Source: Elusimicrobia bacterium GWC2_64_44 (GTDB lineage: Bacteria > Elusimicrobiota > Elusimicrobia > Elusimicrobiales > UBA9959). From it: 64,000 nucleotides of DNA. Numbering within the stretch: position 1 is the first letter of the stretch; each line of letters begins with the position of its first letter. Shown one piece after another: positions 45,823 to 64,000 of this stretch. The notes beneath the pieces are model-generated. The model was not told the DNA's origin. It searched no databases and saw nothing but the letters and a program-made list of their open reading frames with translations. The translations under genes and the position numbers were made by a program. The stretch spans positions 22,597-86,596 of the forward strand of contig MGUG01000013.1 in NCBI GenBank assembly GCA_001799845.1, in the 5' to 3' direction.

Positions 45823-45888
45823 CAAAACAAAACCGCCGGGCTACCCCGGCGGCTTCGGACTTGATTAGGGATCCGCGTACCCTATCCC
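45823..45888 (-). terminator. module: type-C block + hairpin, -10 replaced by GTGAAGGCGATAGGCCC extension
   Basis: Stem-loop 45833-45852 (loop CTAC). Block AGGGTACGCGGATCCCTAATCAAG follows the plsY stop. Confidence 0.65.
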
Positions 45889-46494
45889 CTAAGGTTCCTT
45901 CCGCTTGGCCGCGTCCCTGGCCGTACGGTCCGCCCTGAGACTGACCGCCATTATAAGCGCCATGCCCGCGGCCAGGCTTACGCACATAGCCGTATCTATC
46001 GGTCGCCCCAACAGCCAGGCGGAACCCGGGTAGGACAGCGGCAGCACCCCGAGCGCGGCCAGCCCGGAATAGTAATACTTCTTTGTGACCCCGTACAGCA
46101 CCAGGAAAAGCAGCGCCGTGAAAACTATCAGCGGCAGGTTGAACAGGTAAGCGGCCGCCCCCACCAGGCTGGCTATGCCTTTGCCGCCCCTGAAGCGCAG
46201 CTGGGCCGGGAAGATATGGCCCAGCAGCACGGCGGGCATGGTGAGAGCCGGGATCAGCTGGTTGCCGGGGAACAGCAGGGCGGCTACCTTGAGCGCGGCG
46301 AACATTTTAACCGCGTCGAAGAGCATCACCAGCAGGAACCCGCGCTTGCCCAGCAGGCGGCCGGCGTTGGTGGCGCCGGCATTGCCGCTGCCCAGCACGC
46401 GGATATCCCCGCCGGACTTGAGCTTAACGGCGTAATAACCGCCGTTAAGGCAGCCAACCATGTACGCGGCGATCAGCCACAGAAGTATAGCCAT
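45889..46494 (-). CDS. plsY: glycerol-3-phosphate acyltransferase PlsY
   Basis: GSGNAGATNAGR and FRGGKG motifs. ATG 46494 is 8 nt after TGTAAAAT (46503-46508). Confidence 0.9.
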   Translation of the reverse strand: MAILLWLIAAYMVGCLNGGYYAVKLKSGGDIRVLGSGNAGATNAGRLLGKRGFLLVMLFDAVKMFAALKVAALLFPGNQLIPALTMPAVLLGHIFPAQLRFRGGKGIASLVGAAAYLFNLPLIVFTALLFLVLYGVTKKYYYSGLAALGVLPLSYPGSAWLLGRPIDTAMCVSLAAGMALIMAVSLRADRTARDAAKRKEP

Positions 46495-46502
46495 TGCCTA
46501 TA

Positions 46503-46570
46503 ATTTTACAAAACAAAACCGCCGGGATTGCCCGGCGGCCAAGTTACTCATCTAGGAATCAGCGTCCCCT
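46503..46570 (-). promoter_or_regulatory. full module: type-A stop block + hairpin + TTTTGTTTTGTAAAAT
   Basis: Stem-loop 46519-46538 (loop ATTG). Block 46541-46570 contains the stop of the upstream ORF. 8 nt to the plsY ATG. Confidence 0.65.
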
Positions 46571-47059
46571 GCCCTTTACGGCAACTTCGCGCAACTCCGA
46601 GATAAGTTCTTGAGCTGAGTAGTAAATCGGCCAAACATCGGACGCTCTGTCGACCAATTTTTCCTCCGCTTCGGTAACCGTAAGAACCCCGGTCTTCGTT
46701 AACCCATAGAATACCACCTCCCCTGTCTTGGGGGGTGGAAAACCCTCTACTCTGCGCATCTTTCCGACATGTTCATTCGTATTCATTACGAGGCCAAAAG
46801 CCGCTTCCCGTACAGTTTCATGTGCGCCGCCGCCGACAACACCGCCGCCGGAACTTAAATACAAGCTGGCTTCTCCCCCCACAAATGCGACCAATGTCCC
46901 CAGAACATCCGAAACGGTAAAATCCATTACAACACCGTAAAGCGGTCCGGGCAGTTTTTCCACATCTATGCCCAACTCGGTCGGGGTCGATTTGAGAGCC
47001 ATCTCCCGCAATCCCCGGTAAACCGCAAAGGCATGAGAGGTATCGTTATTTTTAGACAT
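46559..47059 (-). CDS. hypothetical protein
   Basis: GGAGGG SD before ATG 47059. The last residues AVKGRGR and the stop codon are encoded by the module block shared with 52779-52800. Confidence 0.55.
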   Translation of the reverse strand: MSKNNDTSHAFAVYRGLREMALKSTPTELGIDVEKLPGPLYGVVMDFTVSDVLGTLVAFVGGEASLYLSSGGGVVGGGAHETVREAAFGLVMNTNEHVGKMRRVEGFPPPKTGEVVFYGLTKTGVLTVTEAEEKLVDRASDVWPIYYSAQELISELREVAVKGRGR

Positions 47060-47099
47060 AGTATTGAAGCCCTCCAAGCTGCGCCCGGGCCTTGCGACG

Positions 47100-47681
47100 C
47101 TAACCCCTCATTTCCTTTACAAAACCTATCCGCTTGTTTTTCGCCGTCATGCCGATAAAATTCGCCAGCGCTCTCTCGAACATCCCGCGCCCATGCCGCT
47201 TGCGGCTTTCGATGTAGGCCACGCGGATACGCCGGTAGCTTTCCGGGAGCTTCTGAAAATTCCGCCACGCTTCCTTGTCGGCTTTAAGCGGCTCGAGGAT
47301 GTCTGGCGGGATGACGAAATCCCCGGGCTTATCTTTTGCCGGGTCGAAGACGTGGGCGATGGCGGCAAGCCCCGCTTTCGTCATCTTCCTGCCGGCTATA
47401 AGCCTGAATACCCGCTCCCGGTTCATCTGCGAAAGCCCGCTGGTCTTTTTTCTGGGGGAGAACCGCTGGGCGTACCTTTCTTTGTCGAGTGATTTGACCG
47501 TGCTGTCTATCCAACCGTAACAGAGCGCCTCTTCCACGGCGTCGTCATACGAGATGCGGCCCTTGCCGGTCCCTTTGCGGTAATAGATCAGCCAGATCTC
47601 TTTCCCGGTCTTGTGATGCTTGCCAAGCCACGCCCGCCACGCCCTTCTTTCGACGACATACAAAGTCTTTCCGATGTTCAT
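47100..47681 (-). CDS. YdeI/OmpD-associated family protein
   Basis: WRAWL...EIWLIYYRK...YDDAVEEALCYGWIDS pattern. Start trimmed to ATG 47681. Confidence 0.7.
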   Translation of the reverse strand: MNIGKTLYVVERRAWRAWLGKHHKTGKEIWLIYYRKGTGKGRISYDDAVEEALCYGWIDSTVKSLDKERYAQRFSPRKKTSGLSQMNRERVFRLIAGRKMTKAGLAAIAHVFDPAKDKPGDFVIPPDILEPLKADKEAWRNFQKLPESYRRIRVAYIESRKRHGRGMFERALANFIGMTAKNKRIGFVKEMRG

Positions 47682-47697
47682 GCTTTTGATTGATCCT

Positions 47698-47733
47698 ATT
47701 CTACAAAACAAAACCGCCGGGATTGCCCGGCGG
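47698..47733 (-). promoter_or_regulatory. punctuation module: hairpin + TTTTGTTTTGTAGAAT
   Basis: Stem-loop 47714-47733 (loop ATTG). 16 nt to ATG 47681. Confidence 0.6.
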
Positions 47734-47756
47734 CGTAAGCGCGAGCCGCCCGGAGC

Positions 47757-62490: not shown

Positions 62491-62571
62491 ATTCTACCAA
62501 AACAGAACCGCCGGGCTTCCCCGGCGGCTTAAGAGCGAACGTCAGTTAGTCATCTAGTGATCAGCGTCCCC
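62491..62571 (-). promoter_or_regulatory. full module: type-A stop block + hairpin + TTCTGTTTTGGTAGAAT
   Basis: Stem-loop 62508-62527 (loop CTTC). Block GGGGACGCTGATCACTAGATGACTAAC. 6 nt to ATG 62484. Confidence 0.65.
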
Positions 62572-62572
62572 A

Positions 62573-63025
62573 TTATTCCTTCGACGGTTTGTCACCAGCC
62601 CCCGCGCCGAAGAGTTTCTGGAAGGCGGCCATTTCCATGGGGTGCATCTCCATGTCGCCCCGGCCGCGTATAGTGAAGTTTATCCTGTAGTTTTTCTTTA
62701 GCGAGAGCATGGCGTACTGGGCCTCGTTGGGGTTGAGCGCAAGCACCACCCCGTGCAGATCGCCCTTGTCTACGGTATCGAGCACCAGCACGTTCTGCAG
62801 TATGGTGGCGGTGAGCGTCTGCGTCCCGTCCTTCATGACGGCGTCGAAGGTGACCGTCATGTCCAGGCGGTCGCCGGGCTTAATGTAATGCAGCTCCACC
62901 CGCTCCGTGGGCACCACCGTGGCCCTGTAGCCTGGCGGCACGTTCAGCTTTGCCGCGCCTGCGAAGGCCGCCCCCGCGCACACAGTCATTACCGCCGCGA
63001 ATACCGCTATCCTGGTAGTTTTCAT
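62573..63025 (-). CDS. secreted RcpC/CpaB C-terminal-domain-like protein
   Basis: Signal peptide. IKPGDRLDM...ILQNVLVLD...VVLALNPNEAQ...L pattern of the CpaB beta-clip domain. GGGAGG SD. Confidence 0.5.
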   Translation of the reverse strand: MKTTRIAVFAAVMTVCAGAAFAGAAKLNVPPGYRATVVPTERVELHYIKPGDRLDMTVTFDAVMKDGTQTLTATILQNVLVLDTVDKGDLHGVVLALNPNEAQYAMLSLKKNYRINFTIRGRGDMEMHPMEMAAFQKLFGAGAGDKPSKE

Positions 63026-63120
63026 ATATCCTCCCGGGAATCCTATTTTAGAGCTGTCCGCAGAAACACGGCCTTACGTTCACTCTCACTTATGATTACG
63101 CCCGCGGAGGAAAAGTATTA

Positions 63121-63176
63121 CAAACGAAACCGCCGGGTTCCCCCGGCGGCTTAAACACGAACATCAATTGGGATCA
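63121..63176 (-). terminator. module: block variant + hairpin + TTTCGTTTGTAATACT
   Basis: Stem-loop 63130-63149 (loop TTCC). Block GGGAGAACGTTGATCCCAATTG contains the racemase stop codon. Confidence 0.6.
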
Positions 63177-63884
63177 ACGTTCTCCCGCGGCGCGCAGGGC
63201 GGCGCGGGCCAGCAGGCGGGTAGAATCCAGCAGCGGCAGGGAGGTATCCCCGGGGCGCAGCAGCAGCGGGATCTCCGTGCAGCACATCCCGGCGCAGTCG
63301 CAGCCTTCGCCGTGCACACGCTCTATCACTTCCAGGAAATATTCGCGCGCCTCAGGCGTAACGCGCCCCTCCGTAAGCTCGCCGAATATGAAGGCGTTGA
63401 TTCGCTCCCGCTCGGCCTGCGCCGGTATGCGGCACTCAAGGCCGGCCGCCGCGAGCCTGGCCGGGTACACCGGCCCCTCCATAAGGTAGCGCGTGCCTAG
63501 CAGCGCCATGCGCCGGCAGCCCAGTTTGCGCGCCTCGGCGGCCACCTCGTCGGCTATATGCAGCCAGGGCAACGGCGAGCGCCCGGCAAAATGGTCCATG
63601 GCCTGGTGTATGGTGTTGTCCGGCGTGATCAGGAAATCCGCGCCCGCGCCGGCCAGCACCCGCGCCGAGCCCAGCATCAGCTCCGCCACGCCGGCCCAGT
63701 CGCCCTTGTTTATATGGCGCATGTACTCCGCCAGCGGGTAGGTGTGCATGGTGACTTCCGGGTGAAAGGACTTCTCCCCGGTAAGAGCCGCGCCCTCGGT
63801 GCAGATGGTCTGGTAGCACAAAGCCGCCCCCGGCGCGCTGCAGCCCACTATGCCTATATGTTTGAACCCGTTTCGTTCGGCCAT
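63174..63884 (-). CDS. aspartate/glutamate racemase family protein
   Basis: IGIVGCSAPGAALCY and CCTEIPLL catalytic-Cys contexts. ATG 63884 is 6 nt after TGGTAGAAT (63891-63896). Confidence 0.8.
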   Translation of the reverse strand: MAERNGFKHIGIVGCSAPGAALCYQTICTEGAALTGEKSFHPEVTMHTYPLAEYMRHINKGDWAGVAELMLGSARVLAGAGADFLITPDNTIHQAMDHFAGRSPLPWLHIADEVAAEARKLGCRRMALLGTRYLMEGPVYPARLAAAGLECRIPAQAERERINAFIFGELTEGRVTPEAREYFLEVIERVHGEGCDCAGMCCTEIPLLLRPGDTSLPLLDSTRLLARAALRAAGER

Positions 63885-63890
63885 AACGCA

Positions 63891-63926
63891 ATTCTACCAA
63901 ACAAAACCGCCGGGATTGCCCGGCGG
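63891..63926 (-). promoter_or_regulatory. punctuation module: hairpin + TTTTGTTTGGTAGAAT
   Basis: Stem-loop 63907-63926 (loop ATTG). 6 nt to ATG 63884. Confidence 0.65.
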
Positions 63927-63951
63927 TCGTAACGACGCGCGCCGTTAAGGG

Positions 63952-64000
63952 TCAGGAGCGGCCCCCGCCCTTTACCGCGCGCAGCTCTATGTAGCCTCTT
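63952..64000 (-). CDS. partial CDS, C-terminus of a GyrI-like paralog
   Basis: ..RGYIELRAVKGGGRS* matches ..RGYIELRAVKGRGR* of 52779-53279 at DNA level. Runs off the window. Confidence 0.55.
   Translation of the reverse strand, partial: RGYIELRAVKGGGRS

Follow-up and report, generated by a model that had tools for sequence, protein, structure and literature searches.

Gene units joined by one repeated hairpin module fill the rpsJ–rplC junction across a genus of Elusimicrobia and are reshuffled between species

In T4-type phages, promoter early stem-loop (PeSL) motifs, each pairing a promoter with a stem-loop, are located in hyperplastic regions (Arbiol et al. 2010, PMC2839356). Recombination at these motifs inserts, deletes and swaps open reading frames (ORFs) and forms mini-circles, and no integrase was found (PMC2839356; Comeau et al. 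2014, PMC4122927). In its discussion, the 2010 paper stated that there was no evidence for cellular organisms (PMC2839356). Lambdoid phage morons are single accessory genes with their own promoter and terminator; no junction sequence is common to them, and illegitimate recombination is their presumed route of entry (Hendrix et al. 2000, as summarized in PMC2839356). Among bacterial repeats, an inverted-doublet layout of repetitive extragenic palindromes (REPs) defines the REPIN (Bertels and Rainey 2011, PMC3116915), and CGTC-tagged REPs have been described together with genes for REP-associated tyrosine transposases (RAYTs) that have long inverted repeats on both sides (Di Nocera et al. 2013, PMC3733652). 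Here we describe a 64,000-nt stretch of Elusimicrobia bacterium GWC2_64_44 (the window; positions 22597–86596 of contig MGUG01000013.1) that lies within an array between the ribosomal protein genes rpsJ (S10) and rplC (L3), in which small gene units are linked by a single recurring hairpin module.

The source genome (G000) is a metagenome-assembled genome (MAG) of 3.09 Mb in 60 contigs and is 90% complete. Its array contig is called C13 below, so that the window is C13:22597–86596; coordinates without a contig or locus label are window positions. The cassette array is real, genus-wide, bounded by modules and reshuffled at the rpsJ–rplC junction, which it fills in co-orientation with both genes. 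In G021, rplJ, rplL, rpoB, rpoC, rpsL, rpsG and rpsJ stand ahead of the array on a contig of 504 kb; the contigs of G011, G018 and G023 begin with rpsJ beside the array; and in G000 rplC, rplW and rplB flank it at the low-coordinate end of C13. The S10–L3 distance was 18.6, 30.7, 46.7, 47.4, 50, 59 and 60.4 kb in seven of seven genus genomes in which a single contig carries both genes. Outside the family, rpsJ and rplC were less than 1 kb apart in 111 of 111 phylum-sample genomes having both genes, a count for which the S10 and L3 match rows were paired by hand. Inside the family, rpsJ and rplC are neighbors in one genus, separated by a 10-kb gap without the module family in another (G094:C22:69552–80247), and on separate contigs in three.

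A preliminary description of this DNA had placed the array in the right-hand 18 kb of the window (45823–64000). The array is present there and extends well beyond, from about 13.4 to 94.5 kb on C13, so that it measures at least 80 kb in G000. The 18 kb probably form the part nearest rpsJ of a hyperplastic chromosomal region that is at least this large. No S10 gene was found anywhere in the G000 assembly, and the contig stops short of rpsJ; its last kilobase (L121:9200–10189 = C13:95199–96188) is A+T-rich and contains no ORF longer than 72 aa. rpsJ has its own long terminator hairpin in all four genus genomes displayed. Flanked by rpsJ and by rplC–rplW–rplB, the array is not resident in a T4-type phage genome, and no phage structural genes were seen in it by Pfam. 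Misbinning of C13 was considered and rejected, since the contig carries rplC, rplW and rplB and the same locus structure recurs across the genus.

The junction hairpin, CCGCCGGG-N4-CCCGGCGG, is a perfect 8-bp G+C stem with a 4-nt loop. Allowing up to two mismatches, 31 hairpins were called in the window, against 0.38 expected from shuffled sequence. The 18 kb contain 15 of these (14 exact and one with one mismatch) and one half-hairpin cut by an IS3 element. Read on the minus strand, a junction runs from the upstream stop codon, often by way of block AGGGGACGCTGATTACTAGATGACTAACTT or one of its variants, across a short spacer to the hairpin, then through TTTTGTTTTG and (G)TAGAAT or TAAAAT to the next start codon. 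A T-tract like TTTTGTTTTG follows 14 of the 15 hairpins and is itself mostly followed by TAGAAT or TAAAAT. The 15 hairpin-bounded intervals of the 18 kb hold one to four genes each. A module of its own for every unit, as first described, does not hold where the GNAT and DUF481 genes share one or where the membrane ORF, RibD_C, methyltransferase and TPR genes share 60186–62507 without an intact hairpin.

The presence of the block was examined in 11 arrays (G000 and ten others from the genus, all put in one orientation). The block, an optional part of 27–30 nt of GGGGACG type, was present in 59 of 214 modules and absent from 155. Block-bearing full modules were concentrated in the rpsJ-proximal half. 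Upstream ORFs end 3–36 nt ahead of the block or on block stops at −2, +8, +11 and +15, so joins between ORF and block appear imprecise and tolerated by the block. A three-frame stop was rejected as the conserved function of the block, because family A alone has stops in all three frames, against one or two in families B and C. The stem is near-invariant (921 of 984 pairs consensus, 48 broken, 13 wobble and one clear compensatory change), and the loops vary, being mostly GCAG or ACAG toward rplC and GAAG toward rpsJ.

The module family was largely confined to this locus and genus. In G000, 39 of 50 hairpin copies were on C13. Terminator-like hairpins numbered 49 on C13 (5.1 per 10 kb), 44 of them of one stem family, and about 390 outside C13 (1.3 per 10 kb), with diverse stems. 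The module was found in 22 of 24 genus genomes, mostly on a single contig and in a single orientation; it was absent from 16 of 16 genomes of other genera in the order, and the five sister genera of the family gave 0–3 weak matches. An exact-pattern scan with one genome per species returned 111 stretches, and among the 80 listed all except a few solitary matches were Elusimicrobia, Elusimicrobiales or Elusimicrobiaceae MAG records. A metagenome scan with the ADP-ribosyltransferase-family (ART) protein returned 13 loci and no new junction contexts. L139 alone had the module on both sides and throughout, L140 had one distant hairpin, and the rest were relatives of 51–66% identity in other contexts without the module.

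Comparison with relatives, made between species rather than strains, indicated that the units are reshuffled and that homology breaks at the modules. The 18-kb query was compared with 43 genus genomes (G000 and 42 others), and the 42 others matched it only in unit-sized pieces and in differing orders. G048, for example, has DUF481 ... ICMT, DUF523, ART and plsY, and in G020 plsY adjoins the methyltransferase gene. Between genomes of the 11 arrays, high-scoring segment pairs (HSPs) of at least 250 nt were in the same orientation in 323 cases and in opposite orientation in 10, six of which involve a flank gene outside the array. In the set of 302 HSPs in the same orientation that reach 300 nt and 75% identity, a hairpin was traversed at only six places, and 227 of the 604 HSP ends fell within −60 to +80 nt of a hairpin start, a range holding 7.6% of positions. 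In shared unit pairs, the 40 nt ahead of the upstream hairpin were alike (at least 70% identity) in 1% (n = 84) and the 30 nt past the downstream hairpin and T-tract in 2% (n = 65), with a background of 2–3%, versus 56% for the first 30 nt and 55% for the last 40 nt inside the unit. With outer flanks at background and inner flanks shared, homology ends in the hairpin/T-tract at both unit ends. For mobile units, the preliminary description had looked to changed order and content among relatives with breakpoints inside modules, and both were observed.

Single units illustrate the pattern. The DNA of the ART unit is 94–96% identical in G000, G011 and G048, with different neighbours; its unusual upstream hairpin variant is common to G000 and G011, with differing sequence ahead of the variant, and divergence among all three genomes sets in 0–4 nt past the stop codon. 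The ART and XRE units are 94–96% identical between species, against 92–94% for rpsJ, which points to recent transfer between species. An ART paralog of 69–77% identity also occurs outside the array in many genus genomes. Along the G000 array, from the rpsJ end to the rplC end, G+C content climbs from 0.44 to 0.66, and the fraction common to other arrays from 0 to 0.6–0.8, the last bins of the latter being limited by the fetched extent of the other arrays. A low-G+C stretch follows rpsJ in five of seven arrays with the rpsJ end (G011, G018, G021, G044 and G048; not G023 and G056) and is also present at the contig ends of G000 and G020, which stop short of rpsJ. This, like the distribution of loop types and of block-bearing modules along the array, suggests that the array may grow from the rpsJ side, where new low-G+C units would enter, with older, widely shared units at the rplC end.

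In sequence, each module reads as a strong intrinsic terminator followed by a leaderless promoter. G+C-rich stem-loops with a U-run stand at gene 3' ends, as expected of intrinsic (Rho-independent) terminators, and folding of the module RNAs gave −28 to −31 kcal/mol, every fold retaining the hairpin. A TAnnAT hexamer occurs 8–24 nt past the hairpin in 96 of 214 modules, and 84 of these 96 are TAGAAT. Where an ORF of at least 50 aa follows (90 cases), the start codon lies exactly 6 nt past this −10 hexamer in 42, the spacing expected for a leaderless mRNA beginning at the A of ATG. TA[GA]AAT-N6-ATG also peaks genome-wide in G000, with 70 sites at N6 against 9–33 at other spacings; 56 sites are outside C13, and 50 of these begin an ORF of at least 60 aa. 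In its promoter half, the module thus has the ordinary promoter type of the organism, in which leaderless mRNAs seem to be a common mode, and what is peculiar to the locus is that a single sequence family is reused at each junction.

With moderate confidence, we favor PeSL-like modular shuffling in the rpsJ–rplC region, in which the cell's own recombination would act at portable terminator–promoter linkers. The region would be built of self-contained expression units of one to four genes joined by one repeated module, which would insulate each unit from neighboring units and from the strong transcription of the ribosomal genes. Because one short sequence stands at every junction, the same module could also be a portable linker for unit exchange. 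The breakpoints at hairpins are seen in the comparison; the events behind them would be gains, losses, duplications and moves of units across positions and species, with orientation always kept, and we infer this mobility from a comparison of short-read MAGs. Growth may be polar, from the rpsJ end. The weakest part of the proposal is that units would be joined on short homology by the cell's own recombination, as proposed for PeSL, and not by a dedicated integrase.

The likeness to PeSL is considerable. Both systems have short composite promoter and terminator motifs between small, non-essential genes of a hyperplastic region, the ends of indels or replacements between relatives (here between species) fall in the motifs, and no integrase is identified; the PeSL authors propose short-homology recombination and make the comparison with integrons themselves (PMC2839356). 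The Elusimicrobia array differs in being chromosomal, within a ribosomal cluster, 18–94+ kb long and with up to ~40 modules. Its order is terminator then promoter, the predicted promoter being leaderless with a −10 element only, whereas PeSL has sigma-70 −35/−10 elements and a Shine–Dalgarno sequence. Its modules share one invariant stem, and many carry a RAYT-associated repeat. Mini-circles are described for the phage PeSL, and the present array is known from assembled sequence. The morons resemble the present units as single accessory genes with their own promoter and terminator and differ in that the Elusimicrobia units share one junction sequence.

Several observations weigh against this reading. 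The longest exact run between two modules has a median of 11–14 nt and reaches 25 nt or more in only 2–7% of pairs, so RecA-type recombination would be inefficient. Invariant stems with variable loops would also fit a protein that recognizes the stem sequence. The loop variant follows the downstream unit weakly (16 of 89 versus a 9.5% background) and the upstream unit not at all (7 of 69), a linkage too weak to place the crossover. Some breakpoints have no hairpin. One of these, at C13:40739–40752 (window 18143–18156), is common to four other arrays; it lies in the divergent promoter region between a 631-aa gene and a MatE gene, and not all rearrangements therefore use the module. Moreover, every array was assembled from short metagenome reads and has repeats at all its junctions, where misjoins among co-occurring relatives could inflate the apparent reshuffling. 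A pure assembly artefact is nevertheless opposed by the arrays differing in content as well as order, by the consistent gradient and flanks, and by several arrays lying inside long contigs. In Logan contigs, error-free long pieces over the 18 kb had depths of 6.7–10.2, 4.6–6.6, 27.8–34.2 and 4.9–7.3 in four runs, the depth being similar within each run, as units of a single genome should show, and a single contig spans ICMT, ART and XRE (53547–55634). The Logan contigs of the four runs break at modules; the joints listed have sides of 21–35 nt, possibly from other organisms or repeats. No circular form or strain-level indel was seen, and contigs ending at modules can show neither.

One alternative is an integron, either canonical or in the form of a cluster of attC sites without an integrase (CALIN), with unusually short attC sites; we hold this to be extremely improbable. 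Likenesses are evident: the array shares with integrons and CALINs its co-oriented, mostly single-gene, small accessory units of mixed function with paralog duplicates, a repeated hairpin-forming junction, an order that varies among relatives, and the newest, most unique material at one end. The junction itself does not fit. The attC site is an imperfect palindrome of 57–141 nt, unlike the perfect 8-bp stem and 4-nt loop seen here in a junction core of ~30–40 nt. Pairs of RYYYAAC...GTTRRRY (R''/R') boxes in the 18 kb were at chance (2 versus 2.6 in shuffles), none of them complementary, and no Rfam family matched in the window. The array has no IntI, attI, attC boxes or extrahelical bases. In addition, each unit has its own predicted promoter and terminator, a −10 box being present at 96 of 214 junctions and lying exactly 6 nt before the start in 42.

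No intI was found in G000, where the single PF00589 protein (C40:42050–42565, off the array contig) has its best NCBIfam matches with XerD/XerC and scores 114 bits with the integron-integrase model, below the cut-off of 265. One large serine recombinase is encoded at the end of C31, not near the array. By Pfam, the ORFs scanned after rpsJ in G011, G018 and G021, like those at the corresponding contig ends of G020 and G048, included no recombinase family, the rpsJ end of G000 being unassembled. A reverse transcriptase was not found in G000 (90% complete), leaving a retro-mechanism without a candidate enzyme. The preliminary description had seen no canonical integron parts, a short perfect GC hairpin in place of attC, and hence, if the units are mobile, a mechanism different from that of integrons, and all three points stood up. 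Its reading of the locus is supported as a whole; it did not include the rpsJ–rplC position, the predicted terminator and leaderless promoter, or the PeSL precedent.

The search for recombinases and Y1 transposases, which the same description had suggested, gave no integrase and one lead: the "stop block" belongs to repeat families associated with RAYT genes. G000 encodes three Y1_Tnp proteins of 244–370 aa, at L153:1–1701 (C6:17600–19300), L154 (C15:29600–30800) and L155 (C41:118500–119900). Their best NCBIfam match is "REP-associated tyrosine transposase" (NF047646) at 62–71 bits, below the cut-off of 80, and one has a DnaA_C-like helix-turn-helix (HTH) tail. Inverted repeats of GGGGACG type flank all three genes. 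The C6 gene has inverted copies of AGGGGACGTTCTTAACTATTGGA, which is array block family C; the C41 gene is flanked by family D and the C15 gene by a GGGGACAGTATAC... family. Eight loci were fetched from other genus genomes; the script found no ORF in two, and flanks were readable for six RAYT-like genes. Inverted family A, the commonest array block, flanks three of these six, and family C lies upstream of one other. Of the 38 family D copies in G000, 36 are outside C13, and most stand in inverted doublets 70–115 nt apart; families B and E also form doublets. Across the genome, family D forms ~18 REPIN-like doublets. Some stand directly before a T-tract and TAAAAT-N6-ATG and seem, from this arrangement, to serve as terminators ahead of leaderless promoters.

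The blocks resemble REP/REPIN–RAYT systems as short extragenic repeats after stop codons, as inverted doublets elsewhere and inverted flanks of RAYT-like genes, and in containing GACG, that is, CGTC on the opposite strand (PMC3116915; PMC3733652). The array copies differ in being singlets of one orientation joined to a separate terminator hairpin, in only 59 of 214 modules, and in having two direct 8-nt sub-repeats in place of an internal palindrome. The hairpin is another matter, as no Y1 gene stands beside a junction hairpin in G000 and 39 of the 50 hairpin copies are in one locus instead of being spread over the genome.

These repeats raise the alternative that a structure- or sequence-specific enzyme, for which the RAYT-like HUH Y1 transposases are the best candidates, moves the units. 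Single-stranded DNA (ssDNA) of the lagging-strand template would be cut and rejoined at the GGGGACG block and/or the hairpin, and a unit circle would be pasted at another junction. The RAYT-like genes with block-type flanks in G000 and in other genomes, the blocks in 59 modules, the invariant stems with variable loops, the short exact homology between modules and the strictly kept orientation all fit such an enzyme. We nevertheless consider it unlikely. The 155 blockless modules show identical junction behavior, and in G000 the hairpin lies beside no Y1 gene. Among the matches listed, no RAYT-like match is inside the module array, and the copy on the array contig of G021 is ~190 kb away. G026 and G028, with six and seven RAYT-like copies, have no module; rpsJ and rplC are adjacent in G026 and on separate contigs in G028. 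To our knowledge, REPINs carry no gene cargo and no cargo-carrying RAYT element has been described. A more far-reaching version, which we regard as distinctly unlikely, is a gene-capture platform analogous to an integron without a tyrosine integrase: ssDNA would be excised and pasted at the invariant hairpin by a RAYT-like HUH Y1 or other enzyme, entry would be beside rpsJ, and captured ORFs would be expressed at once via the junction terminator, multi-frame stops and leaderless promoter.

The dispersal of the block families also bears on the possibility of an ordinary variable island. Here a selfish terminator–promoter repeat, similar to a REP or a miniature inverted-repeat transposable element (MITE), would have spread into the intergenic spaces of units without special mobility. 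Turnover would be due to unrelated illegitimate recombination and horizontal transfer, and co-orientation to selection against head-on transcription near ribosomal genes. Besides the dispersed doublets of families B, D and E, this possibility draws on solitary full modules (block, hairpin and T-tract) off C13, at C44:59281–59360, C19:46161–46260 and C23:2676–2735 (C23:2716), whose flanking genes have no homology to array units. The C44 module sits in the middle of a 128-kb contig; those on C19 (at the contig end) and C23 (a small contig) may be unplaced array pieces. It also draws on the breakpoints off hairpins, on deletion scars such as the ICMT remnant, and on the layout of terminator then TAnAAT, which is general in the intergenic regions of the organism. 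Independent insertion would leave unexplained why homology stops at the hairpin on both sides of a unit, why single units are closer between species than rpsJ, and why 39 of 50 hairpin copies are in one locus, and we consider such an island improbable.

If PeSL-like shuffling is indeed at work, the array would be an integron-like gene pool run by the cell without an integrase, its units would be natural insulated expression units (terminator, stops in several frames and leaderless promoter), and RAYT-associated repeats would be tied to gene-sized rearrangements. Shuffling at shared promoter–terminator linkers has so far been shown only in T4-type phages, whose authors asked about cells (PMC2839356). 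Here a whole bacterial genus has such a region, with up to ~40 junctions and at least 80 kb, at the highly conserved rpsJ–rplC junction. In a literature search of limited coverage, no comparable array was found described for Elusimicrobia or for any other cellular genome.

The features of the window are listed in Table 1.

Table 1 Modules, genes and other features of the window, in window positions; within each module, parts are given in minus-strand order.
Feature	Position	Strand	Details
Hairpins of the same family, left part (16)	3762–42408	−	starts 3762, 4929, 6678, 9028, 10436, 11061, 12935, 16091, 19566, 23645, 25900, 28504, 31642, 32678, 36387, 42389
Hairpin downstream of plsY	45833–45852	−	loop GTAG (minus); T-tract at lower coordinates
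plsY	45889–46494	−	PF02660
Full module	46503–46570	−	block AGGGGACGCTGATTCCTAGATGAGTAACTT 46541–46570, hairpin 46519–46538, T-tract 46509–46518, TAAAAT 46503–46508; plsY ATG 8 nt past −10
Two-gene unit	46559–47711	−	OmdA/YdeI, 203 aa (47100–47711); 172-aa no-family protein (46559–47077) reading into block TGA
Module	47698–47733	−	hairpin 47714–47733, T-tract, TAGAAT
CsgG/LpoB-like lipoprotein	47757–48930	−	Pfam
Module, variant block GGTGGACGCTGATCCCTAATTCC	48931–48995	−	hairpin 48947–48966, T-tract, GAAAAT
One interval	49000–50606	−	DUF481 (49824–50606), GNAT (49000–49803); Pfam
Hairpin and T-tract	50689–50708	−	preceded by ICMT 3'-end remnant
One interval	50803–52736	−	metallophosphoesterase (51246–52736), DUF523 (50803–51243; named 2-thiouracil desulfurase); Pfam
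Full module	52722–52790	−	block 52761–52790, hairpin 52739–52758, T-tract, TAAAAT
One interval	52779–53904	−	PEMT/ICMT (53347–53904), 171-aa no-family protein (52779–53294)
Module	53913–53948	−	hairpin 53929–53948, T-tract, TAAAAT-N6-ATG of ICMT gene
ADP-ribosyltransferase-family (ART) unit	53976–54836	−	PF03496
Variant hairpin CCGCCGGGGCCGACCGGCGG and T-tract	54878–54907	−	identical variant ahead of ADP-ribosyltransferase unit in G011
XRE HTH and 110-aa ORF	54931–55535	−	XRE HTH 55260–55535, Pfam; unit 94% identical to units in G056 and G041
Full module	55600–55668	−	block variant B 55639–55668, hairpin 55616–55635, T-tract
262-aa no-family protein	55668–56456	−	
Half module (A-tract, left arm, loop), cut by IS3	56465–56485	−	left arm and loop 56474–56485
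IS3-family element, inserted in module hairpin	56486–57745	+	orfA 56602–56880, orfB 57027–57704
ORF6N-domain gene remnant, truncated by IS3	57637–58116	−	Pfam; family multi-copy in genus arrays
Full module	58222–58300	−	block 58271–58300, hairpin 58238–58257, T-tract; then conserved ORF6N-type leader GGCGACAGGCCCTTGTCGGG...
65-aa ORF, alone between two modules	58305–58502	−	
Module	58544–58579	−	hairpin 58560–58579, T-tract, TAGAAT
Two distant paralogs	58602–60112	−	27% identity, no family
Module	60150–60185	−	hairpin 60166–60185, T-tract, TAAAAT
One interval	60215–62484	−	TPR (61999–62484), methyltransferase (61269–62078), RibD_C (60693–61256), 144-aa ORF (60215–60649)
Full module	62492–62572	−	block 62543–62572, hairpin 62508–62527, T-tract, TAGAAT-N6-ATG
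RcpC/CpaB-like protein	62573–63025	−	150 aa; Pfam
Module, degenerate T-tract	63114–63149	−	hairpin 63130–63149
Asp/Glu racemase	63174–63884	−	Pfam
Module	63891–63926	−	hairpin 63907–63926, T-tract, TAGAAT-N6-ATG of racemase gene

The description of all units as minus-strand holds for nearly all genes of the 18 kb, the IS3 genes (56602–57704) being on the plus strand. Most of the unit names first given were borne out by Pfam (plsY, OmdA/YdeI, CsgG-like, GNAT, DUF481, metallophosphoesterase, DUF523, PEMT/ICMT, ADP-ribosyltransferase, XRE HTH, IS3 orfA/orfB, ORF6N, RibD_C, methyltransferase, TPR, RcpC/CpaB-like and Asp/Glu racemase). Neither the names "GyrI-like", "DUF2178" and "NTF2-like" nor the GNAT label given to the two paralogs had Pfam support, even at E ≤ 1. 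The listed TTG start of the CsgG/LpoB-like gene (48974) overlaps the hairpin, and the true start is thus probably further downstream. The ICMT 3'-end remnant is 88 nt long (50714–50801) and 85% identical to 53341–53428, and the DNA of the 171-aa protein is 91% identical to the 3' part of an AraC-type gene past the window end. At the IS3 insertion, the right hairpin arm and the ORF6N gene's 3' end are both missing. The hairpins of the left part have mostly GCAG or ACAG loops and more degenerate T-tracts.

The arrays of nearly all genus genomes contain multiple copies of ORF6N-domain genes (~168 aa for an intact copy), which have their own conserved leader, composed of a small hairpin CGACAGGCCCTTGTCG and CTGCTAGGATATTGG. 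The sites are window 57637–58237, window 45790–45832 and L121:1568–2240, and both G000 copies of the gene are broken, one by IS3 and one by a frameshift. The same leader type stands ahead of two RAYT-like genes and of an HTH gene directly after rpsJ in G021. At the low-G+C, rpsJ-proximal end of the G000 array, a 1279-aa TPR/GreA-GreB C-terminal/PIN protein (Pfam PIN-TPR-GreABC) is encoded on the minus strand (L121:4558–8394 = C13:90557–94393). PIN, HTH, MazG and ATP-grasp genes are located at the same end in other genomes, and this end looks like a defence or toxin–antitoxin island.

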